The notes under the pieces are model-generated. The model searched no databases. It worked only from the letters and a program-made list of their open reading frames with translations, and was not told the origin of the DNA. A DNA stretch of 61,049 nucleotides, the filler included, from an uncultured virus (IMG/VR IMGVR_UViG_3300005239_001275) (Duplodnaviria > Heunggongvirae > Uroviricota > Caudoviricetes > Crassvirales). It is 4 parts of one record of this genome, joined end to end, with 100 filler letters (N's around TTAATTAATTAA, not from the genome) between each part and the next. Parts side by side here need not be neighbours in the genome. Positions count along the whole stretch, not along the records: positions 28,322 to 58,880 come from IMGVR_UViG_3300005239_001275; 3 more parts are not named here. One strand, given 5' to 3'. Below are positions 18,001 to 61,049 of the stretch, in pieces. The translations under genes were made by a program, and so were the position numbers. How positions within the stretch are numbered: position 1 is the first letter of the stretch; each line of letters begins with the position of its first letter.

Positions 18001-18275
18001 TATTTAGACCTCCCTTCTGCAAAACCTCTAAAAGTTTTTTCTTTCTTAACTTCTTTAGGTTTATCTTCTAGTAGCTCTTGCTCGTTCTCTATTCTAGTTA
18101 ATATTTCAAAAGCATCGAATATAGCAAGTTTTTTTGTAGCTGCGGCGTTTTTAAGTCTATCCGCAGAGATATCATCATCTGAATCTACAATTGGTTCTTT
18201 AGCTACTTTAATTAGCTCTTCAACCGCCTTGCGCCCAGCTTGGATTATATTCTTCTTCGTTTCCTTGGTATTCAT
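18000..18275 (-). CDS. Small helical protein, possible terminase small subunit
   Basis: 91 aa directly upstream of TerL; overlaps the preceding gene by 56 nt. Confidence 0.4.
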   Translation of the reverse strand: MNTKETKKNIIQAGRKAVEELIKVAKEPIVDSDDDISADRLKNAAATKKLAIFDAFEILTRIENEQELLEDKPKEVKKEKTFRGFAEGRSK

Positions 18276-23309: not shown

Positions 23310-23315
23310 TATTTA

Positions 23316-23714
23316 TTATTTTTTTGTTGTTATTGATTTTGCTTTTTCCCATGAACGACCTACAAAATATGCGCCGTACACTGTTACAAGAAGAGTTTGA
23401 AATATTGGTATATACTCTTCTGCTATTTTAAACTCCCCGATGTTTCCATCAAAAAACGCGCATACAGTAAATATAACTGTTAAGTATATAAGTACCATTG
23501 GGCGTATATTTTTAGACAAGAAAGAATCAGACTGCATATCTGATTGCCATCTTGCTGTTACTTGCTCTTGAGCCTCTTTATCAGCTTTCTCAAGAATTTC
23601 TGTAATAAGACGCTGAGCTTCTAGTTTTTCCTCTTTAGTGGTTGTAAGATTATCTAAAACCTCGCCAACTTCTTTTATGACGGAACCCGTAAGCCATTGC
23701 CAAATTTTTTTCAC
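23316..23714 (-). CDS. Holin (3TM-type), copy A
   Basis: TARWQSDM.SDS.LSKNIRP followed by two hydrophobic helices and YFVGRSWEK. Confidence 0.7.
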   Translation of the reverse strand: MKKIWQWLTGSVIKEVGEVLDNLTTTKEEKLEAQRLITEILEKADKEAQEQVTARWQSDMQSDSFLSKNIRPMVLIYLTVIFTVCAFFDGNIGEFKIAEEYIPIFQTLLVTVYGAYFVGRSWEKAKSITTKK

Positions 23715-23950
23715 TTACCTAATTGATCTCTTTTTGAAATAGTTTTATCCTTAAGCTTTAAATGCTTGTATTCTGGACTTCTTTTGTCCATTTTTATTTT
23801 TTTACCAGTTTTAGGATGCGTGTATGTATATGTTCTAGCGTCTTCTTCTGGTTCGTTTTGTTTAATTGGATTAACCATGTTTGTTGGAATATCTCTACCT
23901 GTTTTAGGCATATCACCTCTTCCAGGCTTCATTTTAAATGGTCCGTTCAT
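23711..23950 (-). CDS. Small basic protein, variable allele A
   Basis: 79 aa sharing PGR..MPKTGR.IP..M.NP with 24786-25511. Confidence 0.55.
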   Translation of the reverse strand: MNGPFKMKPGRGDMPKTGRDIPTNMVNPIKQNEPEEDARTYTYTHPKTGKKIKMDKRSPEYKHLKLKDKTISKRDQLGK

Positions 23951-23980
23951 TCTCTTGTTATTACTTGTTTATATTATTTG

Positions 23981-24219
23981 TTACTTTACCTTTCTATAAG
24001 CCTCAGCTTCCCAAGGCAAGTTTTTAGCACCTTCCTGCATTTGTGCTCTTGAATATTTTTTACCTTTCCAATATACGTTTTGATCATCGTAATCAAGGTC
24101 TCCACGTTTCATTTGGTCTATATGAACTTTTTCATGCGCAATAACTTTTTTACACTGCGAAGGATCTAAATCTTTGTTTAGAATTATAGTGCCATTTTTA
24201 TTAGCTTACCCATAACGCC
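23981..24219 (-). CDS. HExxH metallopeptidase-like protein, partial, copy A
   Basis: VIAHEKVHIDQMKRG..LPWEAEAY. Confidence 0.55.
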
Positions 24220-24383
24220 NNNNNNNNNNNNNNNNNNNNTATGAGTACCGACTGTCGTGTGTCTCCAATATATATAACTGAACCATTTAAAAAATACTGA
24301 TTACTTATAGTATCGTTAGGTGTTATCTCTTGGATATTGTTAGTTGCGAAATCAGGTTGATTACCGAATTGTCCCATTATTTA

Positions 24384-24782
24384 TTATTTTTTTGTTGTTA
24401 TTGATTTTGCTTTTTCCCATGAACGACCTACAAAATATGCGCCGTACACTGTTACAAGAAGAGTTTGAAATATTGGTATATACTCTTCTGCTATTTTAAA
24501 CTCCCCGATGTTTCCATCAAAAAACGCGCATACAGTAAATATAACTGTTAAGTATATAAGTACCATTGGGCGTATATTTTTAGACAAGAAAGAATCAGAC
24601 TGCATATCTGATTGCCATCTTGCTGTTACTTGCTCTTGAGCCTCTTTATCAGCTTTCTCAAGAATTTCTGTAATAAGACGCTGAGCTTCTAACTTTTCTT
24701 CCTTAGTGGTTGTTAAGTCGTCTATAACGCTACCAACTTCTTTGATAACGCTACCAGTAAGCCATTGCCAAATTTTTTTCAT
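24384..24782 (-). CDS. Holin, copy B
   Basis: Nearly identical to 23316-23714. Confidence 0.7.
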   Translation of the reverse strand: MKKIWQWLTGSVIKEVGSVIDDLTTTKEEKLEAQRLITEILEKADKEAQEQVTARWQSDMQSDSFLSKNIRPMVLIYLTVIFTVCAFFDGNIGEFKIAEEYIPIFQTLLVTVYGAYFVGRSWEKAKSITTKK

Positions 24783-24785
24783 TTT

Positions 24786-25511
24786 TTATTTTTTAGCTAA
24801 TCTTTGTTTTTTTTGCTCTGCTAGCTTAGCTCTTCTTTCTAATATTTTCTCGGCACCTGTTTTTTCTCCGTAAATAAATTTACCAGAAAGTCCATATTTA
24901 GATTTGTCTAAACCTTGAGAAAATACATCTTTAGTTTCTCCGCTTTTTCTTATACCTCTAACAACTGTAGTTTCCTTGCGTGGTGCTTGTCTTATAGCTT
25001 GAGCGGCGACGTCTAAACCTCCTCCATCTACTCTTCTAATAGTTTGTCTTCCATAACCCATGTATCCTTGTGGGCCTCCAGTTTGCTGTATAATTTCTAC
25101 ACGCTCGATTGGATCAACTTTTTCTTTAAGTCTACCTATGTTTATTTTAGCTTTTGGTCCAGTTGTTTTTGGCTTTGTCAAACCAGTTGTTTTTATTTCA
25201 GTAGTTTTAACGCTTTGTAATTTTTTAAATTTTGCGTCTTGTTCTTTTTTACCTTCAGGGCTTAGTTTAGCATAAGCCTCATCACCTTCTGGAGTTGTTA
25301 TTACTCTTTTTGGAGTTGTTGTAGTAATTCTTGTTGTTTTTCCTTTAAAAACATCTCCTGTTTTTTCTACTTTAGAAGTTGGTCTATCAACAACTTCTGT
25401 TACTTTTTCTTTAGTTGGATCTCCAGTAATATATAGAGGGTTTTTCATTTGAGTTGGAATACCTCTACCTGTTTTAGGCATATTCATTCTTCCCGGTGAT
25501 GGCTTATACAT
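24786..25511 (-). CDS. Basic protein, variable allele B
   Basis: 241 aa, K/T-rich, in the same locus position as 23711-23950. Confidence 0.55.
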   Translation of the reverse strand: MYKPSPGRMNMPKTGRGIPTQMKNPLYITGDPTKEKVTEVVDRPTSKVEKTGDVFKGKTTRITTTTPKRVITTPEGDEAYAKLSPEGKKEQDAKFKKLQSVKTTEIKTTGLTKPKTTGPKAKINIGRLKEKVDPIERVEIIQQTGGPQGYMGYGRQTIRRVDGGGLDVAAQAIRQAPRKETTVVRGIRKSGETKDVFSQGLDKSKYGLSGKFIYGEKTGAEKILERRAKLAEQKKQRLAKK

Positions 25512-25541
25512 TGTCTTATTATTACTTGTTTATATTATTTG

Positions 25542-25745
25542 TTACTTTACCTTTCTATAAGCCTCAGCTTCCCAAGGCAAGTTTTTAGCACCTTCTTGCA
25601 TTTGTGCTCTTGAATATTTTTTACCTTTCCAGTAAACATTATTGTCATCATAATCAAGGTCCCCACGTTTCATTTGATCTATATGAACTTTCTCGTGCGC
25701 AATAACTTTTTCACATTGTGAAGGATCCAAATCTTTGTTTAGAAT
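25542..25745 (-). CDS. HExxH metallopeptidase-like protein, partial, copy B
   Basis: AHEKVH and PWEAEAY motifs. Confidence 0.55.
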   Translation of the reverse strand: MLNKDLDPSQCEKVIAHEKVHIDQMKRGDLDYDDNNVYWKGKKYSRAQMQEGAKNLPWEAEAYRKVK

Positions 25746-25854: not shown

Positions 25855-26115
25855 TCATAAAACAACTACAACGTCACCGACTTTAATAACATGATAAGCT
25901 TCTTTTTCAACTTCTATTTTGTGACCAGCATGTCGGTCGTAAAGTATAGTACTACCTTCTTTTAAAGCTGATATATCGCTACCGGCTGAAACAACTGTAG
26001 CTTCCACATATCTTATATCGTCTCTGTGGTTTTCTGCTAAAAGAAGACCACCTTTTGTTTTAGTGGTACCTTCTTTAGTCTTTTTTATAATTATGTTACT
26101 ACCTATTGCTTTCAT
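25855..26115 (-). CDS. groES: Co-chaperonin GroES
   Basis: MKAIGSNIII..TKGGLLL..ATVVSAG..DVVVVL, adjacent to GroEL. Confidence 0.8.
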   Translation of the reverse strand: MKAIGSNIIIKKTKEGTTKTKGGLLLAENHRDDIRYVEATVVSAGSDISALKEGSTILYDRHAGHKIEVEKEAYHVIKVGDVVVVL

Positions 26116-26683
26116 CAATTCTTAAATTATTAATTACACAATCTGTAGATAATATTGTTGTTGCTACTGAAGCCGCGTTTTTAAGAGCGCTTTTAGTTAC
26201 CAGTAGTGGATCAATAATCCCTGCTCGTACCATATTCACTTCCTTGCCTGTAACCACGTTTAACCCTTTGTTTTTAACTTTAGGATAAACAACTTCAAGA
26301 CCTGCGTTAGTAAGAATTGTTTCGTAAGGTGCTTTAATTGCTTGTAGCAGCACTTGTTCACCTTCGCTCTTAGCTTTTATACTATCAGAAGCATTTAACA
26401 AGGCTATTCCACCTCCTGGTACTATACCCTCTTTTATAGCGGCTTTCGTAGCACAGATAGCATCTTCGACTCTATCTGTTTTTTCTTTTAATTCTATTTC
26501 AGAATTAGCACCCACTTTTACTATAGCTACTTTAGCTGATAGTAGCGCTAGTCTTTTTTCAAGCTTTACAAGCTTATTAGGGTTTTTTTCTTTTAAGAGT
26601 TGTTCTTTTAATTCTTTTATAACATTAGCAACTTCTTCTGATACACCATCAACTTGAAGTATTGTGTCCTCGTGTGATGTTAC
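26099..26683 (-). CDS. groEL: Chaperonin GroEL, C-terminal fragment
   Basis: VGANSEIELKEK.DRVEDA..ATKAA..EGIVPGGG and GIIDP..VTKSALKNAASVA. Confidence 0.92.
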   Translation of the reverse strand, partial: VTSHEDTILQVDGVSEEVANVIKELKEQLLKEKNPNKLVKLEKRLALLSAKVAIVKVGANSEIELKEKTDRVEDAICATKAAIKEGIVPGGGIALLNASDSIKAKSEGEQVLLQAIKAPYETILTNAGLEVVYPKVKNKGLNVVTGKEVNMVRAGIIDPLLVTKSALKNAASVATTILSTDCVINNLRIDESNR

Positions 26684-27200: not shown

Positions 27201-27232
27201 TTACAAACAAAATAGTTTTATAATTGGATAAT
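27201..27232 (+). promoter_or_regulatory. Putative phage early promoter, copy 1
   Basis: TTACAAA-N18-GGATAAT upstream of a small ORF at 27281. Confidence 0.7.
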
Positions 27233-27365
27233 AATAATGTAAATACTTTGAAACAATAACTAAATTAAAATAAATAAACTATGAAAAACTATTATGAATT
27301 TAACAATGAATTAGAGTATGAAGAATATGCTCAACTAATGTGGCTAATAAATAATACTAAATAAA

Positions 27366-27397
27366 TTACAAACAAAATAAATTGCTAATTGGATAAT
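27366..27397 (+). promoter_or_regulatory. Putative early promoter, copy 2
   Basis: Same motif and spacing, upstream of ATG 27439. Confidence 0.7.
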
Positions 27398-27438
27398 ATA
27401 AATGTAACTAAATAATAATAAATATAAATATAATAACT

Positions 27439-27666
27439 ATGCAAAATTTACAATCAAAAAGATTTGTTGTACGCAAATCACTAATCGGAAAAAATCAAAT
27501 CATTGAAGTAACTTTCAAAAATGGTAAGTCATTCACTTACAATCATGATAAAGTATATGAAATCATGAAAGACAAATTGTCTTCTATGAATTGCTTTGAA
27601 AAGTACAAGTCTTACACTTCATCAACAAGTGTGCCTGTAATACTACGTGACAAAGAAGTTATCTAG
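27439..27666 (+). CDS. Early hypothetical protein
   Basis: 75 aa ORF downstream of the promoter motif. Confidence 0.6.
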   Translation: MQNLQSKRFVVRKSLIGKNQIIEVTFKNGKSFTYNHDKVYEIMKDKLSSMNCFEKYKSYTSSTSVPVILRDKEVI

Positions 27667-27750
27667 TATTACACCTCAACGGGTGACTGTCCGAACCTGT
27701 GGTCGTGGAACTGACTTAACTGGGCAGGGTAAATATATGAAGTAAAAACT

Positions 27751-27795
27751 GTGACAATAGCCTGTTACTATATAACCTTAATAGGCTAATGTCAT
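27751..27795. repeat. 12-21-12 inverted repeat, copy 2
   Basis: GTGACAATAGCC-N21-GGCTAATGTCAT. Confidence 0.8.
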
Positions 27796-28001
27796 ACTTT
27801 TAAATAAATATAATTTATAGTGATGGATTATGAGTCATCGCGCTATACCTCAACTATAAAATAAACTAATAAATAACTATACACCTATAAACAAAACTTA
27901 TTATGAGAAAATTTACTCACAAACTATTAATAAAACTTATTGACTATAAAGAAAACTTATATAAATTTCTTGGTCCTTCTCCATCAGAAACTAGATGGTA
28001 A

Positions 28002-28033
28002 TTACAAACAAAACAATACAACTATTGGATAAT
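28002..28033 (+). promoter_or_regulatory. Putative early promoter, copy 3
   Basis: Same motif and spacing, upstream of ATG 28047. Confidence 0.7.
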
Positions 28034-28046
28034 ATAATAAACAACT

Positions 28047-28221
28047 ATGCAACATAAAAATATACCATATAACTATCGTGAGTGGACTGCATCAAATGGA
28101 CAAAAGTGTTCATCATACACATGCAAGTACTTTAACTTCTATCCTTATCACATTATATCATTTCCTGCAAATACAGAACAAGAAATGAAAGATAAAATCG
28201 ATGAGTTGTTAGATAATCGAG
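28047..28221 (+). CDS. Early hypothetical protein, truncated at contig end
   Basis: ORF runs into the N gap. Confidence 0.5.
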
Positions 28222-28342
28222 NNNNNNNNNNNNNNNNNNNNNNNNNNNNNNNNNNNNNNNNNNNNTTAATTAATTAANNNNNNNNNNNNNNNNNNNNNNN
28301 NNNNNNNNNNNNNNNNNNNNNTCTCAGAGGCCGATTCTAGCG

Positions 28343-28434
28343 GCAACTAGGTGTGGATGCAACAGGAGTTATTAAATTAACCAGAGTTCATTACTGCTGA
28401 CGAGTATGAGGGTTCGATTCCCTCACTAGTTACA
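28343..28434 (+). ncRNA. Atypical tRNA-like element
   Basis: T-arm GAGGG-TTCGATT-CCCTC and GCAACTAG/CTAGTTAC closing stem; no canonical D or anticodon arm. Confidence 0.45.
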
Positions 28435-28515
28435 AATGTGCAGCGAATAAATAACAAAGACGCGCACCGGTCTAACGACAGTGGTGCACCGCGCTTAGGA
28501 AATGACTGCACACAC

Positions 28516-28593
28516 GGGGGTGACCTGGTATTGACGTGATAGAAAGCCTATATGGAACTATTACGGAAGACAGTTCGATTCTGTCCACCTCCA
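28516..28593 (+). ncRNA. Mini tmRNA-like RNA (tRNA-like domain only)
   Basis: Acceptor GGGGGTG/CACCTCC with G3.U70 and A73, stemless D-loop ACCTGGTATTGA, helix CGTGATAG/CTATTACG, GAA linker, T-arm GACAG-TTCGATT-CTGTC. Confidence 0.75.
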
Positions 28594-28666
28594 CTAATCA
28601 ATACACTCGTTAACCGTTTACGGCTACGGGCGATAACCCATGATAACGCGGGTGTATTGAAGATAT

Positions 28667-28739
28667 AGCGCTGTAGAGCAGTGGCCAGCTCGCAAGGCTC
28701 ATAACCTTGAGGTCGTCGGTTCGAATCCGGCCAGCGCAA
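28667..28739 (+). tRNA. tRNA-Met(CAT), initiator-like
   Basis: Cloverleaf with 1:72 mismatch (A/A), D-stem GAGC/GCTC, anticodon arm CAAGG-CTCATAA-CCTTG and T-loop TTCGAAT. CCA is not encoded. Confidence 0.9.
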
Positions 28740-28759
28740 CTAATTTTAAATATAACACT

Positions 28760-30609
28760 ATGTCAATTAAAGAATTTTTAGACAACAAAAACAAAATGCT
28801 TGATCGAGGTATTGTAGCAACACCTGGAAACAGAGAGCGGTTAGAGTTGTTTGCTAACGCGAACAATGGAAGTAACGACTTATTACTAATGCAAATGGCT
28901 ATTAACTTCGGTTATAAAATAGCCTTAGAACACGTTGAGGAGGATTTGTTATGAGTCAGTATAACGGATGGACTAACTACGCTACTTGGCGTGTAAACTT
29001 AGAAATACTCGGAGATATTGAATTTAATGAGCATGTTTCTGCAGATTATTTAAAAGAAATAACAGAAGATTGTGTATTTAGTAATTACGAAATGCACAGC
29101 GGATCTCACTTGATTGAAGATTACGCTAGAGCTTTTATTGATAAAGTAAACTATTATGAAATTGCTGAACACATCAACGAAGAAATAGATTTACAAATAA
29201 AAAACGAATACTAACGGATAATATAATAAAATAAACAATTATGCAAAAACGACTAAATTTATGGCAAAGGCTAAAGCCTGAGTGCAAAGAAGCTATCAAA
29301 GAACAATACAAAAAGTATACTTACAGAAGAGCTGACATTAAAGAAGAATTAAAATCTAAAGAATTTTTTACAGAAGTAAGCTATGGCATAGCTTTTGATA
29401 TAATGATACCTAACAAGCTGAGCTTTCTAGGCGATGCTTTTAATCCTCAAGTCCATGAATAGTGAAATCAAAGAACGTGCAAGACATAAAGCTTTTGCTA
29501 AAATTAGCTTTCTAGAGTTAGAAAACAAAGCTTACATAAGAGATATTAAAGCAGGTGGCGATGGTCGTATAAGTGTAGACTTACTTAAAACATGCTTAAG
29601 CTCTAACAAAAAAGAATTACAAACCTGGCAGTATATTGCCAAATTAATAGAAACAAATGAATAAAATTATTACAGACAAACTAATCGAAGAAAAACTAAA
29701 AGAAAAAGGTCTATCAATGTATGATCAAGTTGATGATTCTCTTAAAAAACTACAAGATTACTACGAATTTGAACTAACTGATTCTTACAACAGAACGCCA
29801 GACTATTCTATATTTGCAGAATCTACTGCTGATGGCTATGAAGTATGGGTTGCAACAAGCGGTGACGGTAGAAATATATGTATCAACGAAGATGTATACT
29901 ACTACGACAGTGATCTTAGCGATCCTTTATATGACGCTATAATGGATTACAACGAGCTTATATACGTAGACGACCTTGAAGCTTATTACGTGCAAACGCT
30001 ATTGATATGGCTTGGGGAAGCGTTTATTACAGAAATGATAGATGAAGTTGAAATGAATTATAGACAGGATATGACGTGAGAAGAAACAGAATTGCCTAAT
30101 GTTTACGTAGTTTATATAGCGAAGGCGACACAGTTGCAAATCAATTTACAGGTGAAGAAATCGAGCTTACTAGTGTAGAACTTAGTCTTTATGACTTTAT
30201 AATGGGTTGCAATATGCTATTCGCTAGAGGATCTAACAGAGTTAATGATGATATGATTAAAGATTTTGATCGAGCATTGACTTGGTTTAGAATTAATAAC
30301 CCACAAGCCTATATGGTATTATTAGATTAAATGACAGAAAAAGAAATAGAAAAACTAGCAGAATTAATTACAGATAAATTAATAGCTAAACAACAAGAGT
30401 ACGATGAACAGTTCCACATTGACTTACAAGAAACAATGATGAAAGACGGAGGGTTTGTACGTCAAGTGTCTGAGGAAGAACTATTACTTGCTGAGATTGC
30501 TAGGCTTATGACCCTTTTGTCATCATATGAAGATAAAGAGCAGTACGAAAAAGCTGCCATTATTAAAAACAAAATAGATAAATTAAAAACTAAATTAGAA
30601 AATTTATGA
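28760..30609 (+). CDS. Cluster of small early hypothetical genes (28760-28954, 28951-29214, 29241-29462, ~29455-29664, 29657-30079, 30331-30609)
   Basis: Tightly packed, overlapping start/stop ORFs; 28951 begins YNGWTNYATW. Confidence 0.6.
29191..29222 (+). promoter_or_regulatory. Putative early promoter, copy 4
   Basis: TTACAAA-N18-GGATAAT upstream of ATG 29241. Confidence 0.7.
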
Positions 30610-33056: not shown

Positions 33057-33812
33057 ATGAAAAAGTATAATGTACAAAATTATATAAGATATAAAGAAGA
33101 TCTTAAAAAGTCTATGCCTCCTGAAAAGTTTTACGACTATTACAAGAGAGACGAACTTATTGTTAAGTTTTTACCTCTTGTAGAAAATTTAGCACGTAAG
33201 TTTTCAACAACACAGCAAGCATCAGGTGTACTTAGTATAAACGATCTTATACAGATAGGATCTGAAGCTTTAATAAAAGCCGTAGACAAACTAGACTGGG
33301 ATAGATTAATTGACTCACAAGACATAGAACAAACATTAAAGTCGTTTTTTGCAAAACGTGTAAAAGGACATTTAAGAAGGCGTATCGATATGGCTAGAGG
33401 AGGCATGCGTATACCAGAGCATAAGCTAAATGAAATACGCAAAAATCCTAAAGATAAAAAGATGGTTGCTATGTTTTTTAATAGTATGTTTTTAAGTATC
33501 GATGCTCAAATAACGGACGACGACGAAGAAAATATGATGTATCAAATAGCAGACAAGTCAGAGCCTTATAACATACAAATACTTAATGTTTATTTAAAAG
33601 GTTTGATGGAAAAATATCTTGATAAAAACGAATACGAAGTTTTAAGATTATCTTACGGTCTTGACTGCGAAAAACACTCAGCTAAGCAGATAGCAGAAAA
33701 ACTAAACATAAAAGGCATTAGTTCTTATGTACGTGTTTCAGAGCTTAAAAAGCAAGCTGTAGATAAATTAATAGACAGTGTCGACCACTCGCAAGTGCTT
33801 GACTTTGTGTAA
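33057..33812 (+). CDS. Sigma-70 family RNA polymerase sigma factor
   Basis: Region 2 LPLVENLARK..DLIQIG..LIKAVDK, RIP motif and region 4 VLRLSYGL..IAEKL..RVSEL. Confidence 0.88.
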   Translation: MKKYNVQNYIRYKEDLKKSMPPEKFYDYYKRDELIVKFLPLVENLARKFSTTQQASGVLSINDLIQIGSEALIKAVDKLDWDRLIDSQDIEQTLKSFFAKRVKGHLRRRIDMARGGMRIPEHKLNEIRKNPKDKKMVAMFFNSMFLSIDAQITDDDEENMMYQIADKSEPYNIQILNVYLKGLMEKYLDKNEYEVLRLSYGLDCEKHSAKQIAEKLNIKGISSYVRVSELKKQAVDKLIDSVDHSQVLDFV

Positions 33813-46170: not shown

Positions 46171-46918
46171 TTATTCGCCGCAAGGCTTTCCTGTTTTAAC
46201 GTTAATCCAATTTTCTTTTTCAAACCAGTCACGTAACGTAGCACCTTTTTTGCGAGCGCCTTTAACCTCTGATTTAGTTGATCTTTCTCTTTTGCCTTGT
46301 GCGGCTGCAGATTCTTTAGCTCGGATAACTTTTTCTTTAGCTTCTTTACTCATTGATCTTACTTTTGCAGCAGGTAAACACACTTTACGTGTACCACCAC
46401 CTTTTGCTTTATGTAGCGGAGATCTTTTTTCTTCTGCGTGAGACAAACCTGTTTTATTGCTATCTCCTCTACCGGAAATAGCAGCAGTTCTATTACGCAT
46501 TTTATTCCACGGCTTAGAGTGCATAACCGTAGCAGCACAATGCATCATTGGTGTTTTTTGTGAATATGCCATTATTTTTTACCTTTATCTAATTTGCGCA
46601 TTGCTGCGTTTCTAGCACACTTCATTTTAGCAGCGTAGCTAGGATTCTTTTTTCTATTAAATACTATTTGCTGGTTTAGACTACCAACAATAGCTTTTTT
46701 ATTTCTGTTTCTAGATCTAATTAGCCAGTTAGCTAAAGCGTCACACCCAAGTTTTTTGAACTTACCTTCTGCGTCTTCGTATTTAGAGTCTTTCCACTCA
46801 GGTCTTTTACTTGCCATTATTTCTTTTTATTACCGTAGTTTTGCGGTCCACCAGCTTTAGTACATCTTACACCCCAACCTGAAGCGTAAGCGCTAGGCCA
46901 AACCTTGAATTTTCTTTT
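46171..46918 (-). CDS. Three small basic proteins (46171-46572, 46572-46817, partial 46817-46918)
   Basis: LRDWFEKENW..GKPCG and KVWPSAYASG motifs; K/R-rich. Confidence 0.55.
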
Positions 46919-46937
46919 NNNNNNNNNNNNNNNNNNN

Positions 46938-49900
46938 NGCTTCTTCAACTTAGGTGATTTTTTATCTGCTTGCTCAGCTATTGTCATTAAGGCGTTTTTA
47001 ACACCAGCAATAACTGCGCCTTGAATACCAAGACCTTTTAACTGCGAATCAATAGCACCATTTATAGTTCTTTCTAACTTTTGCTCTTTATTCTTTTCTG
47101 TTAACTCTTCATCATCTTCGTCATCATCAAACAATGCCCAAGCTAAACCGCTTTGTAGCGCGTTAAATAAAAGGTTTTGCATAGCGCCATAGTAAACTAT
47201 TTTAGATATATTGCTTCTCCAATCACCTCTTTTGTTTACCAAATCTTGCACAGCTCTTTTTTGTATACGCACATACTGAAGCTGCGTGTTACCAAACTGA
47301 AGTATAATACGACCAATTAAAGATCTTTGCTGCTGACTAATTCGCATTGGACTACTAGACTGCTGGTTTTCCTCAGCTATAGCTCTAAAGTCATTAAAAG
47401 CCTGTTCTTCCGCTGCTTTTCTGTCCATACCTTGTTCAACCAAGGATTCTATTCTATTTCTATAAAATGTAGCACCACCAGAAGCAATAGCAAAACTATC
47501 CGCGTATCTTGTGAATACAAAACCTTTATTAAGCAAGTATGATATAGCAGCGTTAACTTTATTTTTGCTACCTTCAACAGCATCAGCTATCTCAGACTCA
47601 CTTACATTAATTTTAAGACCATCTCGTCTTTCAAGCAAGTAATCAGAGTTCATAAGAGTTAAGAAGTCACCCCAAAATTGTTTTTGGTTAGCAAACGCTT
47701 TACCCGCCTTTAATATATTATTATCACCCCAATTTATAAAGTTTACCGCAGATATGGTCTGTAATACTGCAGATCTTGTGTTTAAGAACATTATAGCACC
47801 AACAGAGTTGTTTAGCCAGTCTAATATACCGTTTGATACTCTATCGCCGCCTAACGGTCTATTGCTACCAGTCTTCATTGCTCTTAGCGAGTCTTTCAGT
47901 GCTTCAACATACTTAGCGCCAAAAGCAGCTTCTAGCTTATTTATGTTCTTTTCAGAAAATATAATATCTACATTTTCTTGCCACTCTTGTAAATATTCTT
48001 TTCTATTAACCTTATTAATACCACCTATAACGTCTGTAGTTATAGTGCCAGCTGTCCAGTCTTTACTAGGTTCCGGATATGGCTTGTCTTTTTGTATTGT
48101 TATTAAGTTGTCAGCAAATACACTGAGTTCAGCGTCATTAGCTATAAAATCAGTTAATCTTTTTTGATCACGCTTAGAAAGTCCTGGAACTTCAATACCT
48201 TGTTTATTCCATATGTAAGTTCTAATAGCATGCTGATATGTATACTTAGCAATACCAGTTTCTTTTTCTAAAGTTTTNNNNNNNNNNNNNNNNNNNNNNN
48301 NNNNNNNNNNNNNNNNNNNNNNNNNNNNNNNNNNNNNNNNNNNNNNNNNNNNNNNNNNNNNNNNNNNNNNNNNNNNNNNNNNNNNNNNNNNNNNNNNNNN
48401 NNNNNNNNNNNNNNNNNNNNNNNNNNNNNNNNNNNNNNNNNNNNNNNNNNNNNNNNNNNNNNNNNNNNNNNNNNNNNNNNNNNNNNNNNNNNNNNNNNNN
48501 NNNNNNNNNNNNNNNNNNNNNNNNNNNNNNNNNNNNNNNNNNNNNNNNNNNNNNNNNNNNNNNNNNNNNNNNNNNNNNNNNNNNNNNNNNNNNNNNNNNN
48601 NNNNNNNNNNNNNNNNNNNNNNNNNNNNNNNNNNNNNNNNNNNNNNNNNNNNNNNNNNNNNNNNNNNNNNNNNNNNNNNNNNNNNNNNNNNNNNNNNNNN
48701 NNNNNNNNNNNNNNNNNNNNNNNNNNNNNNNNNNNNNNNNNNNNNNNNNNNNNNNNNNNNNNNNNNNNNNNNNNNNNNNNNNNNNNNNNNNNNNNNNNNN
48801 NNNNNNNNNNNNNNNNNNNNNNNNNNNNNNNNNNNNNNNNNNNNNNNNNNNNNNNNNNNNNNNNNNNNNNNNNNNNNNNNNNNNNNNNNNNNNNNNNNNN
48901 NNNNNNNNNNNNNNNNNNNNNNNNNNNNNNNNNNNNNNNNNNNNNNNNNNNNNNNNNNNNNNNNNNNNNNNNNNNNNNNNNNNNNNNNNNNNNNNNNNNN
49001 NNNNNNNNNNNNNNNNNNNNNNNNNNNNNNTTGTGATATAGCCATTTCAGCTCTATTATAAGGATCAAGTAAATTTGTTTTGTAAAAAGCCATTTGAGCA
49101 TCTCCAACCTTGCCTTCACCTAGTGTTCTGTAAAGCAAACCAACAAAATCTTCAGCTGATGGTGTTGTGAAGAAGGTAAATTTACCTTTATTTGCGCCAA
49201 CTGTTTTGGCTTTAGCAGCAGAAAACTGTTTATAAGATTTAATACCTGTTTTAGCTTCAATAATGTCATTAAATATTTTATCGAAAGTTTGTTCTTTACT
49301 GAGCTTAGCTTGTTGAACTTTTGATTTAACATCTATTTGGCTTAATACGTCTTTAACAGCTTTAACATTTTTAATTGCATCATCAGCAAAGTAAAAGTCA
49401 TTATAACCTTCAGCTGCTTTACCAGCTACCCATCTACCTTTTGCAGCAGCAGTACCATCACCTAAACCTGTTATGTTTGCTAAAGGTATATCAATACCAT
49501 TAGCTTTCATGAAATCTTGTATAGGCTTAGCAGCGTCAGCAGGTCTAGCTGTTAATATAAATACATCATCAGTACCTCTTGCTTTAGCTATTTTTTGAGC
49601 CACACTAAATAATGGCCCTTTTTCACCTTCAATTACTCTGCTAAACTCTCTAAAATCAAACTGTGCGCCTTGACTTTCTAAAACATCATATTGAGTAGCA
49701 AAACTGCTTGCGTCAACTTTACCAACTTTATTAGTATTTATACCAGCGTAAACTTTTTGTAAAAAGTCATCAGGTAAAGGTTTACCGTATTCTATAGTCT
49801 CCGTATTAATCTCGTATAAACGATCACCAAAATCTTTTCTATATTTAGCTAAACTTTCTTGAACTTGATCATAAGTTTTTTCTACAACAAAGTCAGGTAA

Positions 49901-52900
49901 TGATCTTTCAGTTCTAGCTTTATTTCTTTCAATAGCTGTTTCAAGCGGCGTAGTAGCTACAACCATGTGCACTTCATAACCAGCTCTTGTAAAGCTTTTA
50001 TTTTTTTAGTAGTAGCGTTATAAGAAGCACCTGTACCATCTATAACCATACCATTACCGGCAGCAGCATATTTATCAAATTTAGCTACAGCGGCTTTTCT
50101 AGCAGCAGCACCAAGCTTAGACCTTATAGATCTTTGCTCTGCGGTGTAATCAGATTCTTTAGCAGGTAATCCAGCTTCTTCTTTCATAGCTTCTAGAGCT
50201 ATATCTTGATTTACTACTTTATAACCTCTTCTACCAAGTTGTAATCCTTTACCAACGTTCGTTTTACCAGCGCCAGGACCACCAACCATAAATATAGCTT
50301 TTAATTTTGTAGAACCTTCGCTAAAACCTTCTTCGACATTTGGCATTGTATATAATACGTTTGACTCCGTGGTAGCTAAAGTGTCGTCAAAATCCCAAAC
50401 GCTTATGCCTTTAGGGTTTTCAGCGTAAGAAAACTTAACAGCATTATTTATCGCTTTTTGCTCTGTATTTATTTTGTTTAGTTCAGTTTTAGAAAATTTA
50501 ACTGAAGATCCTACTACTCTTTTTTCCTTAGCATCGTAAAATTGTATACCTAAACCATAGTATCTAGTATCAATAGGTGAATCTCCAGGTTTATAGTCTA
50601 AGCCCATATCTTCCTGCAGTCCATTTTCTTTTAATATGTCATCTAGCTTTTTTGGCAATATACTAGTATCATAGTTTTCTAACTCTAACTTTAATTGGTC
50701 TAAAATAGATTTGTCTCCAGTTAAAATATATTGAAGAGAAAGCGNNNNNNNNNNNNNNNNNNNNNNNNNNNNNNNNNNNNNNNNNNNNNNNNNNNNNNNN
50801 NNNNNNNNNNNNNNNNNNNNNNNNNNNNNNNNNNNNNNNNNNNNNNNNNNNNNNNNNNNNNNNNNNNNNNNNNNNNNNNNNNNNNNNNNNNNNNNNNNNN
50901 NNNNNNNNNNNNNNNNNNNNNNNNNNNNNNNNNNNNNNNNNNNNNNNNNNNNNNNNNNNNNNNNNNNNNNNNNNNNNNNNNNNNNNNNNNNNNNNNNNNN
51001 NNNNNNNNNNNNNNNNNNNNNNNNNNNNNNNNNNNNNNNNNNNNNNNNNNNNNNNNNNNNNNNNTGTTCCATCGCTATTTCTCATTATTTCGTTTTGAAA
51101 AAGCTCAAACAATTTTTAAGTTCGTTTATAGAATCATCTTGGCGTTTAACAAAATCAGAATCATTTAAAGCTACTGACAGATCACCTTTTTTAGTAAAAA
51201 CATCTTCTTGCTTTAACATATTTTTAAAAGCATCAGTTTCTTCGGCAAAGTTTTGCTTGCCAATACTAGCTATCCACTGTCTAGCTTCTATAGTATTTTT
51301 AAAAGGTAAGTTTCCTGTATACTCTCTTAAACTAGCACCATCCATTGTAAATGGTTTTCCTACTATACCTTCTTCTTTAAATTCTCTTTTTTGTTTTTTG
51401 GTGAAAGCACTTTCTGTAACGTAAGCCATTCCTATCCAAAAACTTGGAGGAGTTTTCTTTGTTAAACCACTATCTACAGCAAATTGTAAAAATCTTTCCC
51501 TACCTTCAGGCGTTTTCATATCCATTCTAGAAACACCAGTATCTTTAAGTATTTGATCTAGAGTGTTGTTGTAATTTACTTCATAAGCGTTTACGCCTAT
51601 AGACTCAGATTTCTTGTTTGTTTTTTGAAATATATTTGTAATTTCTTTGCTAAACTTAGCGCCACCAACAGCTCTTTCTGCAGTTGTAGTTACTAAATCT
51701 TCAAACATGCGGTTTCTAATATGTAGATTTAATAAACCTCGTATTGTTTGACCTACAGCATCTCTATATATTGGTTTAACAGGTTTTTGTCTAATAAGAT
51801 CCATGTAATCTTTTAGAGTACCTGTAAGCTTACCATTTGTATACAACGCGTTCATTACGTTTCTAGGTAAGAAAGTACCTTTTCCAAAACCATCTTTAGT
51901 TTCAGGTAACCTAGCAAAATCATTGTTAGCGTTTTTAAGCAAGAACTGTTTAGCAGTTGTTAATCCTTCAGCGTCTTTTTTCTGATAGTTTCTAGTTTTA
52001 TCAGTTATAGTTTGAGGATTTAAACCAAACATACCAGAGTAAATATCAGCTACGGCTTTAGGTACATTTCTAGTTTGTCCAAAAGTTTTAATATCTTTGT
52101 CTTTAAAAGCTTCGTTAGTAGCTTCTGTTGTTCTAGTTTCAACTTCAACTTTATCTTTAGCGCCTATTTTTTCTATTTGTGTTTGTGAAAACTCTACTGT
52201 TTCAGTTGGTTTTTTAGCTATAGGTTTTTCTTTTGTATCTATAACCGTACCTCTTCAGCTGTAACACCTTTTGCTTCTGTTACATCAGTTGTAAACTCTT
52301 CCCCTAAAACTCTTTTAGAAGCCTCTATAGCTCTAGCTGGTAAAAATTTATTGATATAAGCAGCTAGTGGCACACCTGATTCTGGCTTATAATCCATTAT
52401 TAAATCAAGTATACCTCTTTTACCAGTTTCTATTTCATCAGTTAATAATTGACGATCAAAATTTGGCGCTTGACTACGAGATTCTACTATTTTACTAGTT
52501 ATAGGTTTAAACTTTTGTATAATATCCATAGCAGCGCTAACACCTTGCTCTTCATAAAGTTCTTGAACCTTGTTAGAGGCTTCTTGACTTAATTTAGCTT
52601 CTGCGCTAGCAGCCTTACCTGTTACGACAACTTCATCTAACTCTATAGGTTTTTTACCGGCTAATCCTTCTTCTTGTATTGTTTTAACATCGCCAACAGT
52701 TAAAGTTCCGTCTTTTAATTTTCTACCTAATTCTTTAGCAAAGTTTATTATATCTGTCTCTCCCTTAAAGTTGTAGTTATAGTCAGTGTTAGACGCTTTA
52801 GAAGTACCCATGTTTAACAGTGTACCTAAGTAGCCTAAGAAACCATCGTTTCTAGCTTTATCTAGTTTTATTTTACCATCTGCAACTTCTTCAAAAAACA

Positions 52901-55860
52901 CGGTTAATACTTCATCTGCTCCTTGACCTTTTGTTCTAGTTAATATTCTAGTATAAGCTTCTGGATTTGCTTCTTTTAAATATGATAGTATTAGTTCGCT
53001 TGATTGTTTAAACGCGCTAGAGTCTACACCTAAAGCCTCGGTTAGTATAACGTGTCCTAACTCGTGGAGACTTGTTTGACTTCTCTCGTTAGCTATAGAG
53101 TTTTGAACAGTTGTTACTGAATCGTAAACTGTTTTACCTGTTTTTGTATTTGTTGACGGAATATTTATACCATTTATTCTACCGCTATTTACTCCTTCAG
53201 TAAAATCTTCTATATATTTTTGAGCTTGTTCTTCTGTAATGCTGTTATTAGAGTCTGNNNNNNNNNNNNNNNNNNNNCTTTTTTAAAGTTATTTATACCA
53301 TTTTGAATAGTATTAAATTCAAACTCTAAACTTTTAAGCATAGATTCTTTCTGCTCAGCTGGTATACTATCACTATTGTCTAGTGCTTCAGCTTGAACTC
53401 TAAGCTCCTCCTGTCTTTTCATAGATTGCTCTAATAAAGAAGCTCCTTGTTTATTTAAATTATTAGTTGTTAAATTTATTCTATTTTCTAATATTTTTTT
53501 ATTTTGATCTTCTAGTTCTTGTTTCTGTTTTCTAAAAGCTTGTTTGTCTGATTCTGATACAAACGGACTTTCTATAGCACTGTCTAAACTTTTTATCATT
53601 CTAATATTAGCTCTATAGTCTGAGGTTGTATTATAATCACTTAACACGGCTGCAGCTGCTCCTTTAAAGAAACCAGCTCCTTTAAAAGTTGAAGCAAACA
53701 TTCCTCCTGAAAATACTGATTCCTTAACATTTTCAAATAAAGGTCTACCATCTATTCCATTTTGAAATATAGTGGTTAAACCTTCACCGCCAGCGTCAAG
53801 AAGAATTTCTCCAACGTCTTGACTAGCGTTGAGTCTAATGTTTCTAAAAAAGTTTTTCCAACCGTCTAATATTTGTCTTTTTCCGTTTTCACTAGCTCCT
53901 CTTAATGTTCCTTTTAGAATTAAAGAAGTAGGAGCCACGCCAAAAGCGTATTCGGCAGCACCAAAGCCTAATGACTGTAAGAAAACATTAAACTCGTTGT
54001 AGGCTCTACCACCTTTTGTTTCTGCTTCTAGCTGTCTTTGAGCTTGATATTCACCGCCTGAACTAGCCGATACAGCTAACATACCTAGATTGCCAGAAGC
54101 TATAGCAGCGAATATAGGCGCTTGATTTATTGTTTGATCTAAAGCGTATTCCCCGAAATTAGATAAACTTTTAAATGCGTTTTTGAAACTTACAGGTTTA
54201 TAATATTTGTTAGCTACAAATTCTTTTACTTCAACAAGCTTTTTAGCTTCATCTTGAAAAAATGTAGCGGGTTTTGCGGCTCCAATTACTTTTCCTTCAT
54301 TGTCTACTTCTAAAGTTGTAGCAGACATAAAATTATTAGCTTTTTCTAAAAGCGCTGCAGTGTTTAAGCCTATACTTAATGCGCCTAGTTTTAAGTCTGT
54401 AAATCTTTTTTCAAATTTATCATAATTTCTTTTTAAAGCATCTAATTGAACGTCAGAATCCTCAATAACAGATATCATGTCATTATACTCTGTCATTCTA
54501 TTCTCTAGATCTAACTGTTCATTTTTTAAATTAGATCCTTGTATATTATAATATTGTATAAAATCCTTGTAATTATTAGCTAAGTCCCTATATTCAATTA
54601 AGTCTTGAGTTATATTTTGACCTTTTTTCTGCTTGTTTTGAATTCTATTTTGAACAGATTTTATTTGTTGTTGTTTAGATTTTAAAGATTTACTATAATT
54701 TTCAAAATTTTTAACTAAACTACTATCTTTAAATTTGTTTAAATCTAGTTCAAGCTCTTTAGCAAAATCATTAATTTCCCAAGTAGCTCTATTTCTTTTT
54801 CANNNNNNNNNNNNNNNNNNNNNNNNNNNNNNNNNNNNNNNNNNNNNNNNNNNNNNNNNNNNNNNNNNNNNNNNNNNNNNNNNNNNNNNNNNNNNNNNNN
54901 NNNNNNNNNNNNNNNNNNNNNNNNNNNNNNNNNNNNNNNNNNNNNNNNNNNNNNNNNNNNNNNNNNNNNNNNNNNNNNNNNNNNNNNNNNNNNNNNNNNN
55001 NNNNNNNNNNNNAAACCTACAGTTGATCCAGCAGCTAATTTACCAGTTGTAGTGACAGCGCCACCAGCCATCATACTTAAACTTACAGGCGCGCTTCTTG
55101 TTATTCCTTGAGCTAAAAGTTTAAAGCCATCACTGTAGTTACCTTTTTTAAAGTTTTCGTATATACCTTTTGAATCATAATTTTCATTATCATATATATC
55201 AACTACGTTTTGTAGTTTTTTTGCTTCTTCCTCGTAATAATCTAGTATGGGATTTGATAAACCTTCTTCTTCTTTAAAACTTTTAGAAGATGTTTCAAAA
55301 TCTAAATATCCTTTAGCTTTTAAAGTCTGTATATAAGGTCTTAGCGTAACAGGATAACTATCTGGATCAGCGGCTAGGTTCTGCGGTATAGAAGCTATAT
55401 CATATAGAGTTTCTGGTATAGAAGCAGCCATTTTACCTAAATCAATAGAACCAAGCTCAAAAGATAAACCTAACCTATCTAGCCAATCCATTTCAGCGGC
55501 TTCTCTTTTCTTTTCTTCTTTATCTAAATAAGATTTCCACTCGTCTTTACTTACGTATTTACCGTCTATATTGTATGTTATTTCAGGTTCTGGTGATACC
55601 GAAAAAGTATCTTCCAAACCAAATTCCGTAACGGGTTTTGGTGCTTGTTGAGGTCCCATTGACGGAGCAACTGCACCCGGTACACCGTCTTTTTTCTTTA
55701 CTGCACCAAGATCTACTTCTTCAAGCTCTACAGTTTCAGAAACTTCAACTTCTTGCTCACCCCATTTATTAGATTTTTTCCACTCTTTAACCAATCTAAC
55801 TTTTTCATCATTAGAAAGTGATGGATCTAAAGAATCTACGTATAGTTCTAATTCGTTCAT
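46938..55860 (-). CDS. Giant polyvalent ejection-type protein (roughly 3000 aa), fragmented by gaps and frameshifts
   Basis: Co-oriented open fragments with HELGH peptidase, a sigma-2-like segment, HAD and P-loop motifs and a helical C-terminus. Follows two ejection-type genes; joining the fragments is inferred. Confidence 0.6.
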
Positions 55861-57631: not shown

Positions 57632-58880
57632 TTAGTATGATGATTCCACTATGTCTGATGACACAGAGAACAATTCTTTTTTAGTTGTAGGATAAATTGA
57701 ATTATTTAGTTTCATTTTTACAGTTGAATAAAAACCTTTTATACCTGACATATCTGCTCCATATAGTATTTCACCACTTACAGCAGGTGAATTATTTATA
57801 AGGTTTGCAAAATATTTATCTTCTTTTTTCTTAAATGTGTTAGACCATATTTGAGTCTCTAAGCTAGCTAAATTATCCTGAAATACATATTTACCTATTG
57901 GTAAAGTTTTGTCATTAGAACTAGCCACCATGCTTTCTAACTCCCAACCTAAAGCACCCTCGTAGTTAATTGTTTTAAAGTTTTTAACAACTGAAGGATT
58001 AGAGTTTAGTATTATCGTTACATCTGAATCGTAACTAAATCCATAAAACTGAGCATAGTTACCTAAATAGTGTTGATAAAGTTTACCAGTATTAAATGTA
58101 TAAAATACATTACTTAAACTAAAAGAATAATTAGGTTTGTAACTAGAAAAACTAGTCCAACCTAATACGCCCTCGTCAAAAGTAACTGTAGAAAAAGGTT
58201 CTGTCCAGCATATTATAGTTTGTAAAGCTGGTATTGGATTTGTTAGATTAGCTACAAAAGAAGCTGGATTAGATGTTTGTATAACAGAAACGATAGTTCC
58301 ATAAAATTCTCCTGTTATTTGACCTGACGTTGTATATTTATATATATTATCTCCAGCAGCAATGTCACCTATGGTAGCATTTAATGTTACAGTTACATTA
58401 CTACCTGCATTGGCAATATTTTGACCATTTTGGGCTACGTTACCCGTATTTCTTTCTTGCTGTGTAGATACAACATAGTTTTTAGAATGTGAGTTCCACC
58501 CTCCAACTACTCTAGCCGCGTTAGCTAGTTCGTCTCTAAAAAAGTCATGCATACCATAAGATGATATTTCAGTTATACCATCAGCTGATAATCTTAGTAC
58601 ACAACCTCTTTTTTTATCTGTAAAGTATTTTCTATAACCATATACAGCAAAACTTTTCTGGGTTTGTGCTTATACCATATTCACCAGCGTAAGCAACAAT
58701 TTGACCTATAACTTGTAATGATGATGTAATCGATGCGTTACCTTCTGCAGAATATATAGCATCTTTATCTATTAAAGCTCTACTTACTTTGTCTTCTTGA
58801 AATATAATTAAGTTAGTATCTTCAGCATATAATAATTGTATTGAACCATTTGCTGGGTCTGCAGATCTAGTTATATCTTG
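57632..58880 (-). CDS. Tail stabilisation protein, second divergent copy, partial
   Basis: DTNLIIFQEDKVSRALIDKDAIY, GWTSF and SGIKGFY match 10-1860. Confidence 0.7.
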
Positions 58881-58980
58881 NNNNNNNNNNNNNNNNNNNN
58901 NNNNNNNNNNNNNNNNNNNNNNNNTTAATTAATTAANNNNNNNNNNNNNNNNNNNNNNNNNNNNNNNNNNNNNNNNNNNN

Positions 58981-59683
58981 AAAAGTCCATAGCTTTTTGT
59001 TGGTCTTGTGTCGTACCAGGTCTCAACTTGATTTCCTCGTAATATTGACTTTTTAAACCATCTAAATGCTTTCGGGCTTTTGCAACCTCTTCTTTATACG
59101 CAAGTTTCTTTTTACGAATCTCACGCTCCTCATCCACTTCTTCATCATATGAAAAATTATCTTCAATCATGAAGTTAATTTCACTTGAATCTAAGTGTGA
59201 TTTGGCTTGTTTGTAATACTCTCTTAATAGAGTATCATTATCTACATTAGAATAGTCTGCATTTAATCTTACATAATCTTCTAACGTTCCACCAGTTTCT
59301 TTCATAAAGTCTACAACTTTTTCGATGTTTTCTGGTAGCTTAGCTACTTCTCTTGCCTCTTCAGGCGTTGGAGCAATAACTTTTTCTTCAATTTTTTCCC
59401 CTAATTCTACTATTTCCTCTTCAACAACCTGCTCTACAGGTTTTACTTCTTCTTCAACTTCAGAAATCGGGCTGGACTCTGGTACTTGTTCGTCCACTTC
59501 AGGGCTATTTCCGGTTTGTTCTTCCACAACCACCTTCTTTGTTTCTCCGACTTGAATGGCATCTGTTTCTTTTTTAGGTTCTTCTTTTTTTGATAAATCG
59601 ACTTTAATAATATCGTTTTTTACCAATTGTTTAGGCTTCTTTTTTATTTTAAAAGAGCCTTCTTCTTTTACTTGTTCTGACAT
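58981..59683 (-). CDS. Scaffolding-like protein, second genome, partial
   Basis: LPENIEKVVDFMKETGG.LEDYVRLNADYSNVD matches 12187-13371. Confidence 0.7.
59443..59562 (-). CDS. Overprinted 39-aa basic protein inside the second scaffold gene
   Basis: MPFKSEKQRRWLWKNKPEIALKWTNKYQSPARFLKLKKK*. Confidence 0.7.
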   Translation of the reverse strand: MPFKSEKQRRWLWKNKPEIALKWTNKYQSPARFLKLKKK

Positions 59684-59714: not shown

Positions 59715-61049
59715 TTATTGCGGTGTAAACTGCTCTAAACCAAATCCGCCTAAGTTATCATTACCTGCTGATTCAAAATCTGTAGGTAGTAAATCATTTT
59801 GACGTTGTTCAATCATTTGTGATTGTTGTGTTGCTTGTAGTTTTGTTCTTTTATCTTTACGATCTTCTATAAACTGTTCTTTTTCTTTGTCTCTACCAAT
59901 TTGAGCTTGAGCTAGTTGTAAACTATACTGAAACTCTTCAGCCATTAATTGTTTTTTAATTAACGCTTCCTGCTCCATTCTTTGTATTTCAAACTGTGAC
60001 TTAGCTTGTTCGATTTGTATTTCAGTTTGTGCTAAAGCCTCTTGTTTTTGTACTTCATTTAAAGCAGCTTGCTCAGAAGGCTGCATGTTAGCTTGAGCTT
60101 GGGCTTGTATTTGTTTTTCTTGAGCAGCTTGATCTTGTTTTTGCTTTTGTATTCTTCTGTATTTTAATATCTGATTAGCTAAAGTTATATTTTTAACTTC
60201 TCTAATATCAATAGCATCTTCTAAATATATTTGACCAGACTGTAAAGCAACTTGTATGTTTTGTTCTAACATAGCTTTTTCTTCATCATCAGGTTCAAGT
60301 TCTAAATAAATACCAAAATCATATAAATGAAGATTTTTAAGTTCTTCTAAGTTTTGAGTGTTAGTTAAAGATATACTTTGCATTAATGCTTGCTTAGTTA
60401 AATCAAACTCTAAAGCATCGGCTAATCTTAAAGATATATTTTCACAAGCTCTTAAAGTTAAGTATAAACTAGCATCAACAATATGCTTAGTTGCTATATT
60501 TGAAGCGTTGGCAGCCATTTTTTGCAAGCCAACTAAAGCGTCTTTGTCTGGTAAACTGCCGTCTCGCGCTTCATTTAATCCTGTCACATCTCTTATCATT
60601 TGTAAATAATACTGATAAGTAGCTATAAGTGACTGTATTTTTCCATTAGAACTTGAAGTCTGTAATTCTTGTATAGGTACTTTACCCCTATTAGGATCTC
60701 CATCTTGTGTTAAACTTCTACCAACTATACTACCAGTTTGAAAATACATGTTTAATGCCTCTTGTGGATTATAATTGGTACCATTACCTAAATCAACCTC
60801 TGCTAAACCATCAACATCTACAAATACACCATCTGGTACCATACGTTGAATTACTTGCTGTAATTTTAACGATGTTAATTGTATCATATCTGCAAAACTT
60901 GTACATCTACTAACTAAAGATTCAATACGACCTTGATATAAATTAGGTGCACATATAACATAGTTCATTTTAACCTTAGTTAAATCACTATTAGGTCTTG
61001 TCATGTTTTTAGCTAACTTCCACTCTAACATTTGTGAACACCCATAACT
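59715..61049 (-). CDS. Portal protein, second genome, 5'-truncated
   Basis: Colinear with 13402-15789 (DGLAEVDLGNGTNYNP, IRDVTGLNEARDG) but diverged. Confidence 0.85.
   Translation of the reverse strand, partial: SYGCSQMLEWKLAKNMTRPNSDLTKVKMNYVICAPNLYQGRIESLVSRCTSFADMIQLTSLKLQQVIQRMVPDGVFVDVDGLAEVDLGNGTNYNPQEALNMYFQTGSIVGRSLTQDGDPNRGKVPIQELQTSSSNGKIQSLIATYQYYLQMIRDVTGLNEARDGSLPDKDALVGLQKMAANASNIATKHIVDASLYLTLRACENISLRLADALEFDLTKQALMQSISLTNTQNLEELKNLHLYDFGIYLELEPDDEEKAMLEQNIQVALQSGQIYLEDAIDIREVKNITLANQILKYRRIQKQKQDQAAQEKQIQAQAQANMQPSEQAALNEVQKQEALAQTEIQIEQAKSQFEIQRMEQEALIKKQLMAEEFQYSLQLAQAQIGRDKEKEQFIEDRKDKRTKLQATQQSQMIEQRQNDLLPTDFESAGNDNLGGFGLEQFTPQ

Follow-up and report, generated by a model that had tools for sequence, protein, structure and literature searches.

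A sigma region 2-like module within a giant multi-domain late protein of uncultured marine podophages with crAss-type tail genes

Here, we analyzed a 61,049-nucleotide (nt) stretch of DNA (hereafter, the window) from an uncultured member of the Crassvirales (IMGVR_UViG_3300005239_001275), with a focus on a giant late gene (46820..55860, minus strand) and on a small helical module in its product (52293..52595, minus strand) that resembles region 2 of the sigma-70 family. If intact, the gene comprises about 2,900 codons; in this record, it is spread over the stop-to-stop open reading frames (ORFs) 54745-55860, 53213-54700, 52242-53282, 51088-52254, 49960-51081 and 46820-50005. These limits are assigned because the ORFs are colinear with homologs of 2,665-2,929 amino acids (aa; P0121, P0122, P0128 and P0131) and because the N-terminus of P0128 aligns with the ORF that starts at 55860. 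The gene belongs to a minus-strand late operon, where it is preceded by a portal fragment (phrog_6547) and a muzzle-like tail gene (57632..58552, minus strand; Pfam crAss_MUZ_C, E 1.7e-10) and followed by an endolysin gene. The original prediction, made without naming a strand, placed a sigma-70 region 2-like domain embedded in a giant protein at 52315..52530. Both the peptide and its embedding hold: positions 52320-52523 of the minus strand translate exactly to IIQKFKPITSKIVESRSQAPNFDRQLLTDEIETGKRGILDLIMDYKPESGVPLAAYINKFLPARAIEA, within a 347-codon stop-to-stop frame (52242-53282) of this ~9-kb gene, and stops abound on the plus strand and in the naive minus frame.

The quality of the record bears on how the gene is read. 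The window contains 18 runs of N, and those at 54803-55012, 53258-53277, 50745-51064, 48278-49030 and 46919-46938 cut the giant gene; judging from a relative with an intact frame (P0001, 1,291 aa), the 20-N run at 53258-53277 takes the place of about 105 residues. There are also three single-nucleotide frame breaks, none of them beside Ns, namely, at 52245-52254, directly after the module, where the record is one base short compared with P0001; at 51100-51115, in a run of five A; and at 49960-50005, in a run of seven A (all minus strand). Breaks in A runs, as in two of these cases, typically arise when homopolymers are misread in sequencing, but A7 is a classic slippery sequence as well. The breaks are attributed to errors or gaps in this record because P0001, which is 100% identical over the module piece, reads through the first two, and because frames in relatives are open (2,229-2,851 aa), although a pseudogene is still conceivable.

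A relaxed sigma 2.2-2.3 pattern (G..G[LIVM]..[ALIVM]...[FYW].P..G..[FLIVM]..[YFW]) is found at a single place when the window is translated in six frames, namely, at the module, compared with a mean of 0 in 200 residue-shuffled sets. In an alignment of 36 module sequences that are less than 72% identical to each other (33-67% overall with the first row as reference), almost no variation is seen at the 2.2-like and 2.3/2.4-like positions (E67, I68, G71, R73, G74, I75, D77, L78, Y82, V88-A92, I94, N95, L98, R101, I103-A105 and R108), and the 2.2-like D/E-x-I-x-x-G-x-x-G-[IL] pattern is retained in the family. The module nevertheless fails to reach the curated sigma models (PF04542, 24 bits; TIGR02937, 42.9 bits). 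Scans of the window pieces against Pfam, PHROGs and NCBIfam yielded no sigma, peptidase or RNA polymerase (RNAP) family for this region; Pfam produced no match to the window piece at E<=0.05 and no Sigma70_r2 match in any of the 36 family members even at E<=10, and PF04542, run against the six frames of five relatives, recovered the stand-alone sigma factor alone, in all five. Direct comparison of the module with the stand-alone sigma by BLASTP gave an E value of 1.7, and hhalign of the two family profiles returned a probability of 0.38 (E 0.16) with the right register (regions 2.1-2.2). A search of PDB with the single module sequence retrieved nothing relevant, and the family profile reached a sigma chain only at E 0.24, yet exactly at the motif. 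A search for free-standing forms of the module among proteins of 73-233 aa yielded only fragments or split pieces, as judged from the four cases examined, and none had a sigma-4 Pfam domain; one fragment had been named a specialised sigma subunit by the JGI pipeline. By sequence statistics, the module is not a sigma region 2.

By contrast, the predicted structure is that of sigma domain 2. The AlphaFold2 model (model residues 14-114 correspond to 52293..52595 and include the peptide) has a predicted local distance difference test (pLDDT) score of >90 over residues 16-112. Helices span residues 10-41, 43-52, 61-70, 75-81 and 90-109, in an arrangement matching the helices of regions 1.2 and 2.1-2.4, and the linkers on either side are disordered, including the one between the peptidase domain and the module (model residues 1-15, pLDDT <50). 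Structural matches to sigma domain 2 align 72-93 residues at root mean square deviations (rmsd) of 2.4-3.7, the nearest being sigma28 (6pmj/9wsm), sigB (8x6g), sigma70 (1sig/6ca0) and the SigE N-domain (8b3z); ranks 7, 9 and 14 of the list are unspecified chains of transcription-initiation complexes. Foldseek alone gave no match at E<=1e-3, with a list made up mostly of sigma chains, among them the SigE N-domain with a TM score of 0.68 and an rmsd of 2.6 over 76 columns. In the ESM Atlas, which works on a different principle, ranks 1-3 are Sigma70_r2 and viral 'sigma factor' clusters, at a borderline level (0.90, 143 shared features). Judged by its predicted structure, the module is a sigma region 2, and we conclude that it is a genuine, though highly diverged, domain 2 of the sigma-70 family (regions 1.2 and 2.1-2.4). 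The anticipated sigma-2 fold is predicted and the motif falls in register, whereas the initial assignment of regions 2.2-2.4 gains no support from any curated sequence model. Sigma-4, sought in the region downstream of the module, was not found there: past the disordered linker lies a conserved helical domain (51775..52227, minus strand) with no recognisable sigma-4. The module appears to be a single exchangeable domain rather than a full-length sigma.

The module family is large. A HMMER search recovered 392 cluster representatives at E<=1e-3 and 314 at <=1e-10, most of them 2,000-3,400 aa in length; many match query residues ~210-336 alone, that is, the module itself, where conservation in this large family is highest, and 240 IMG/VR stretches encode the module. 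In a tblastn search of 50,697 phage records, no match was detected for the piece spanning the HExGH domain and the module, for the C-terminal region of the giant or for the stand-alone sigma. Within its own protein family, the module is sporadic. When giants were sampled through other protein regions, using patterns derived from P0121, 76 loci were obtained, 64 of them with an open frame of at least 2,000 aa; the canonical module (E<=1e-5) is present in 4 of these 64, and 56 of the remaining 60 still carry HExxH. P0121 and the window share 83% identity over the HExGH piece, yet P0121 has a different sequence at the module site. The giant of the near-complete genome G006 (locus L088) shares 85% identity with P0121 along its whole length and also has a different sequence there; the family profile aligns with it at positions 123-251 only and, in the giant of a second near-complete genome, G010, nowhere. 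The replacement cassettes (L088:13298-13822; P0121 residues ~1130-1245) contain strings that resemble sigma 2.3 by eye (NYKP..G....FTTYL and RRFDPKRN..ISTLLFRNI, respectively), a likeness that, for the L088 type, goes no further than the eye because Pfam, PDB and hhalign comparisons were all non-significant. By its distribution, the module is an optional cassette, and the position directly after the HExGH domain looks like a swap site.

A separate, stand-alone sigma-70-family factor, comprising regions 2 and 4, is encoded on the plus strand (33057..33812) and, as originally proposed, scores as a sigma, passing TIGR02937 with 48.4 bits against a cut-off of 42.9 and matching phrog_351 at 1.8e-19. 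Its family is very abundant in marine data (at least 8,000 matches; those listed are ~87-96% identical, many on ~60-kb contigs). The TTACAAA-N18-GGATAAT sites, put forward as early promoters unlike those of the host, are likewise real: four copies lie on the plus strand at 27201, 27366, 28002 and 29191 (27201..29222), compared with 0.01 expected, and a small plus-strand ORF lies within ~30-50 nt downstream of each. The motif is unlike the Bacteroidota -33/-7 consensus. It can be written in three blocks, approximately TTACAAAc.AAA(TACGA)-N8-TGGATAAT(ATAAT), and in every case shares its strand with the replication and sigma genes. Five near-complete relatives with the module (61-66 kb) carry 6-8 copies each at one mismatch or less, and control genomes carry 0. 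The comparison covers seven near-complete genomes, five with the module and two, G006 (96% complete) and G010 (99% complete), without it. Homologs of the stand-alone sigma are present in all five of the former and in both of the latter (88% and 64% identity to that of the window in G006 and G010, respectively), and the motif persists in both module-less genomes, with five exact copies in G006 and one exact copy plus four with one mismatch in G010. Because G006 and G010 keep motif and sigma without the module, the early motif travels with the lineage and the stand-alone sigma (or the host), not with the module, and this distribution counts against the module reading those promoters; the argument rests on these two genomes, in which the replacement cassettes could be functional equivalents.

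The remainder of the giant protein combines several further domains. The HExGH zincin-like domain (52611..53255, minus strand) has its HELGH motif at 53052-53066, in the same frame as the module and ~180 codons upstream of it, followed by invariant glutamates at +47 and +54 from the second histidine; across 13 diverse sequences of the domain, H64, E65, G67, H68, E115 and E122 are invariant, and in 78 of 81 giants, 121-284 aa separate an HExxH from the module downstream of it. The HExxH that had been noticed next to the module is conserved across the family. The term zincin peptidase is a motif-level call because searches of Pfam and PDB profiles with this domain gave no significant match, and Pfam searches of its individual members gave nothing consistent. 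Its nearest ESM Atlas clusters (0.95 and 0.94) carry LPD23 in 18-20% of their members, and further neighbors carry LPD1, ART-PolyVal and MuF_C, all polyvalent-protein families. A short local alignment also links the domain profile with part of an isoprenyl transferase (7jli_A residues 153-189, E 0.004; approximately 52680-52790, minus strand); it covers the conserved NFKGETD..F...LG.KLK.GTLT stretch and is probably a chance motif similarity.

Downstream of the module, a polynucleotide-kinase/phosphatase-like cassette (49379..50394, minus strand) combines haloacid dehalogenase (HAD)-like hydrolase motifs with a P-loop kinase inserted after HAD motif I (DFDDTL 50377-50394; GGPGAGKT 50260-50283; FILTAR 49544-49561; YFADD 49379-49393). 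It matches Pfam AAA_33 (5.7e-7) and Zeta_toxin (1.8e-4), phrog_505 polynucleotide kinase and, at E 0.009, the bacterial Pnkp model TIGR04075, and could possibly serve in RNA repair or counter-defence; the P-loop is found in only 13 of 87 giant homologs. Two Gly/Ala-rich hydrophobic segments (54059-54124 and 53915-53971, minus strand; Kyte-Doolittle values of 1.25-1.52 in 19-aa windows), out of two or three in the protein, are weak candidates for membrane-inserting stretches. The conserved C-terminal region (46940..48277, minus strand) is 55-65% identical to P0121, P0122, P0128 and P0131 and has no match in cultured phages; a WPSAYASG motif lies near the C-terminus (46877-46900, minus strand), and the C-terminal parts of homologs P0198 and P0242 match Pfam DUF5763 (E 1.5e-8 and 1.5e-4). 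The suggestion that no virion RNAP motif is visible is upheld. DxDGD is the defining catalytic motif of RNAPs of the crAss or N4 type, and no such signature was identified in the giants: of 87 giants of at least 2,000 aa, a single one contains D.DGD, at residue 128. The full-length homologs P0121 and P0122 have no sequence match in PDB, and PF00940 matched in none of five relatives, with the control genomes silent too.

The lineage consists of ~62-kb marine podophages with crAss-type tail genes. By terminase, the best-matching record is an uncultured 60.8-kb podovirus (63.5% identity). In MW202828.1, the nearest record by terminase, a 3,859-aa giant with two HExxH motifs and without the module occupies the same position. 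The host is probably a flavobacterium, as we infer from the cultured phages with the closest terminases (44% identity): their hosts are Flavobacterium, Cellulophaga, Tenacibaculum and Maribacter (86 of 87 records). The window also holds a tandem duplicate of a holin gene (phrog_3427; 23171-23716 vs 24240-24784, 95% nucleotide identity), a second repeat (23883-24184 vs 25453-25745, 87%), and minus-strand GroES-like (phrog_13932) and GroEL-like (phrog_5725) genes at 18220-18825 and 26099-26515, the latter a C-terminal fragment adjoining N runs. There are, in addition, two related but differing copies (~71% nucleotide identity) of the portal gene, the next gene and the muzzle-like gene (13402-15789 vs 59715-61049; 12648-13001 vs 58981-59337; 10-1860 vs 57632-58879), and the Ns at 58881-58980 occupy the place of ~11 kb in the other copy. 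The record therefore resembles a scaffold of, or a junction between, two related phage genomes, in which case the stand-alone sigma and the giant gene may come from different source genomes.

The presence of the HExGH domain and the kinase/HAD cassette alongside the module suggests that the giant is a polyvalent, probably virion-delivered protein: several unrelated domains reside in one polypeptide and are shuffled among relatives. Virion packing is suggested by the location behind a muzzle-like gene and by analogy with phiCrAss001, and the hydrophobic segments and the polyvalent-protein families among the Atlas neighbors of the HExGH domain fit the same picture. The near-invariance of the 2.2-like and 2.3/2.4-like positions speaks for a sigma-2 identity of the module. 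An accessory role for the module is indicated by its presence in a small minority of giants and by the retention of motif and sigma in G006 and G010. The reading that we favor, tentatively, is that of an accessory sigma-2 cassette of such a protein, freed by the metallopeptidase and docking on the host core RNAP. The giant would be a virion component that leaves the particle along with the DNA, as are crassvirus cargo and polyvalent proteins, and its own metallopeptidase would then cut it in the linkers. Once released, the sigma-2 mimic would dock on the beta-prime clamp helices of the core RNAP, competing with host sigma, and would capture or disable the polymerase at the start of infection. 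We infer each of these steps, from virion packaging and cleavage to RNAP binding and the effect on transcription; the module would be an accessory take-over effector, neither an early-promoter specificity factor nor a complete sigma. A bolder version, in which the virion-delivered mimic takes sigma's seat on the core RNAP at the time of DNA entry and the swap site hosts alternative polymerase-targeting cassettes, seems rather unlikely to us; if true, the mimic would be the first sigma-derived injected effector.

Alternatively, the sigma-2 fold might have been re-used outside RNAP, as a substrate-binding or regulatory appendage of the peptidase, a binder of single-stranded DNA or DNA ends, or a packing or ejection element. 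We consider this doubtful, albeit to be reckoned with: the structural matches are overwhelmingly to sigma domain 2 rather than to assorted helical bundles, the 2.2-like pattern is kept, the disordered linker sets the module apart from the peptidase domain, and sigma-2 domains are not known to act outside RNAP. Far less plausible is the scenario of the original prediction, whereby an injected sigma, either sigma-2 only, as in T4 gp55, or with the domain downstream, guides host RNAP to the TTACAAA-N18-GGATAAT sites and leaves later genes to the stand-alone factor. This story of an injected early sigma does not match the promoter distribution. The G006 giant, so similar overall, has unrelated sequence at the module site and G010 has no module-profile match, yet both genomes keep motif and sigma; most related giants lack the module; no sigma-4 was found; and a two-block promoter would need a second reader. 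Least probable of all, and very improbable in our judgment, is a chance resemblance, with AlphaFold pulling a conserved helical domain of unknown kind toward a sigma-like model. The non-significance of all sequence statistics, the lack of a Foldseek match at the threshold and the borderline Atlas score are what one would expect in that case, but four different methods agree on the family and the register, the model is confident, the motif occurs once in the window and never on average in the shuffled sets, and an independent pipeline gave a fragment a sigma name.

Known phage strategies are to carry an RNAP in the virion or to produce sigma and anti-sigma factors once infection is under way. 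If our reading is correct, a sigma-derived domain in an ejected giant would represent a third route to host transcription, available before any phage gene is expressed. The module family, with its hundreds of cluster representatives and IMG/VR stretches, is environmentally abundant, and because it is invisible to Pfam, NCBIfam and PHROGs, a profile would annotate many dark giant phage genes.

Compared with sigma-70 domain 2 (PF04542), the predicted helices of the module align and the 2.2-like G..G[IL] and [FY]-x-P..G elements are in register, whereas the module fails every curated sequence model, has no recognised sigma-3 or sigma-4, and is embedded in a ~2,900-aa protein instead of being free-standing. 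In addition, the Trp pair of sigma-70 region 2.3 is lost, a Y-I-N-K-F stretch falling in its place in the profile-PDB register. T4 gp55 offers a precedent for a phage sigma-2-only unit without sigma-4; unlike the module, a cassette of a giant late protein that is dispensable in relatives, gp55 is small, free, made after infection and essential for late promoters. In phiCrAss001, the genes that follow the muzzle gene (gp45-gp50) encode cargo and RNAP-associated proteins detected in virions by mass spectrometry (PMC10172136). The giant gene resembles that block in its location after a muzzle gene in the late operon, its size and its expected ejection with the DNA; it differs in having no DxDGD/RNAP signature, and this phage encodes a stand-alone sigma and hence presumably relies on host RNAP. 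A further parallel is offered by the polyvalent proteins, for which zincin processing and jump-starting of transcription are themes in the main text of the paper describing them (Iyer et al. 2017, PMC5512222), where the transcription module is an N4-type RNAP and the word sigma occurs 0 times. These proteins share with the giant a multi-domain polypeptide, an HExxH hub, putatively of the zincin type in the giant, and shuffled effector domains, and the role in jump-starting or hijacking transcription proposed for them fits our reading of the module; by contrast, no Pfam LPD model scores on this giant. In the open-access literature, including PMC5512222 and PMC7824862, we found no report of a sigma domain in a virion, polyvalent or cargo protein.

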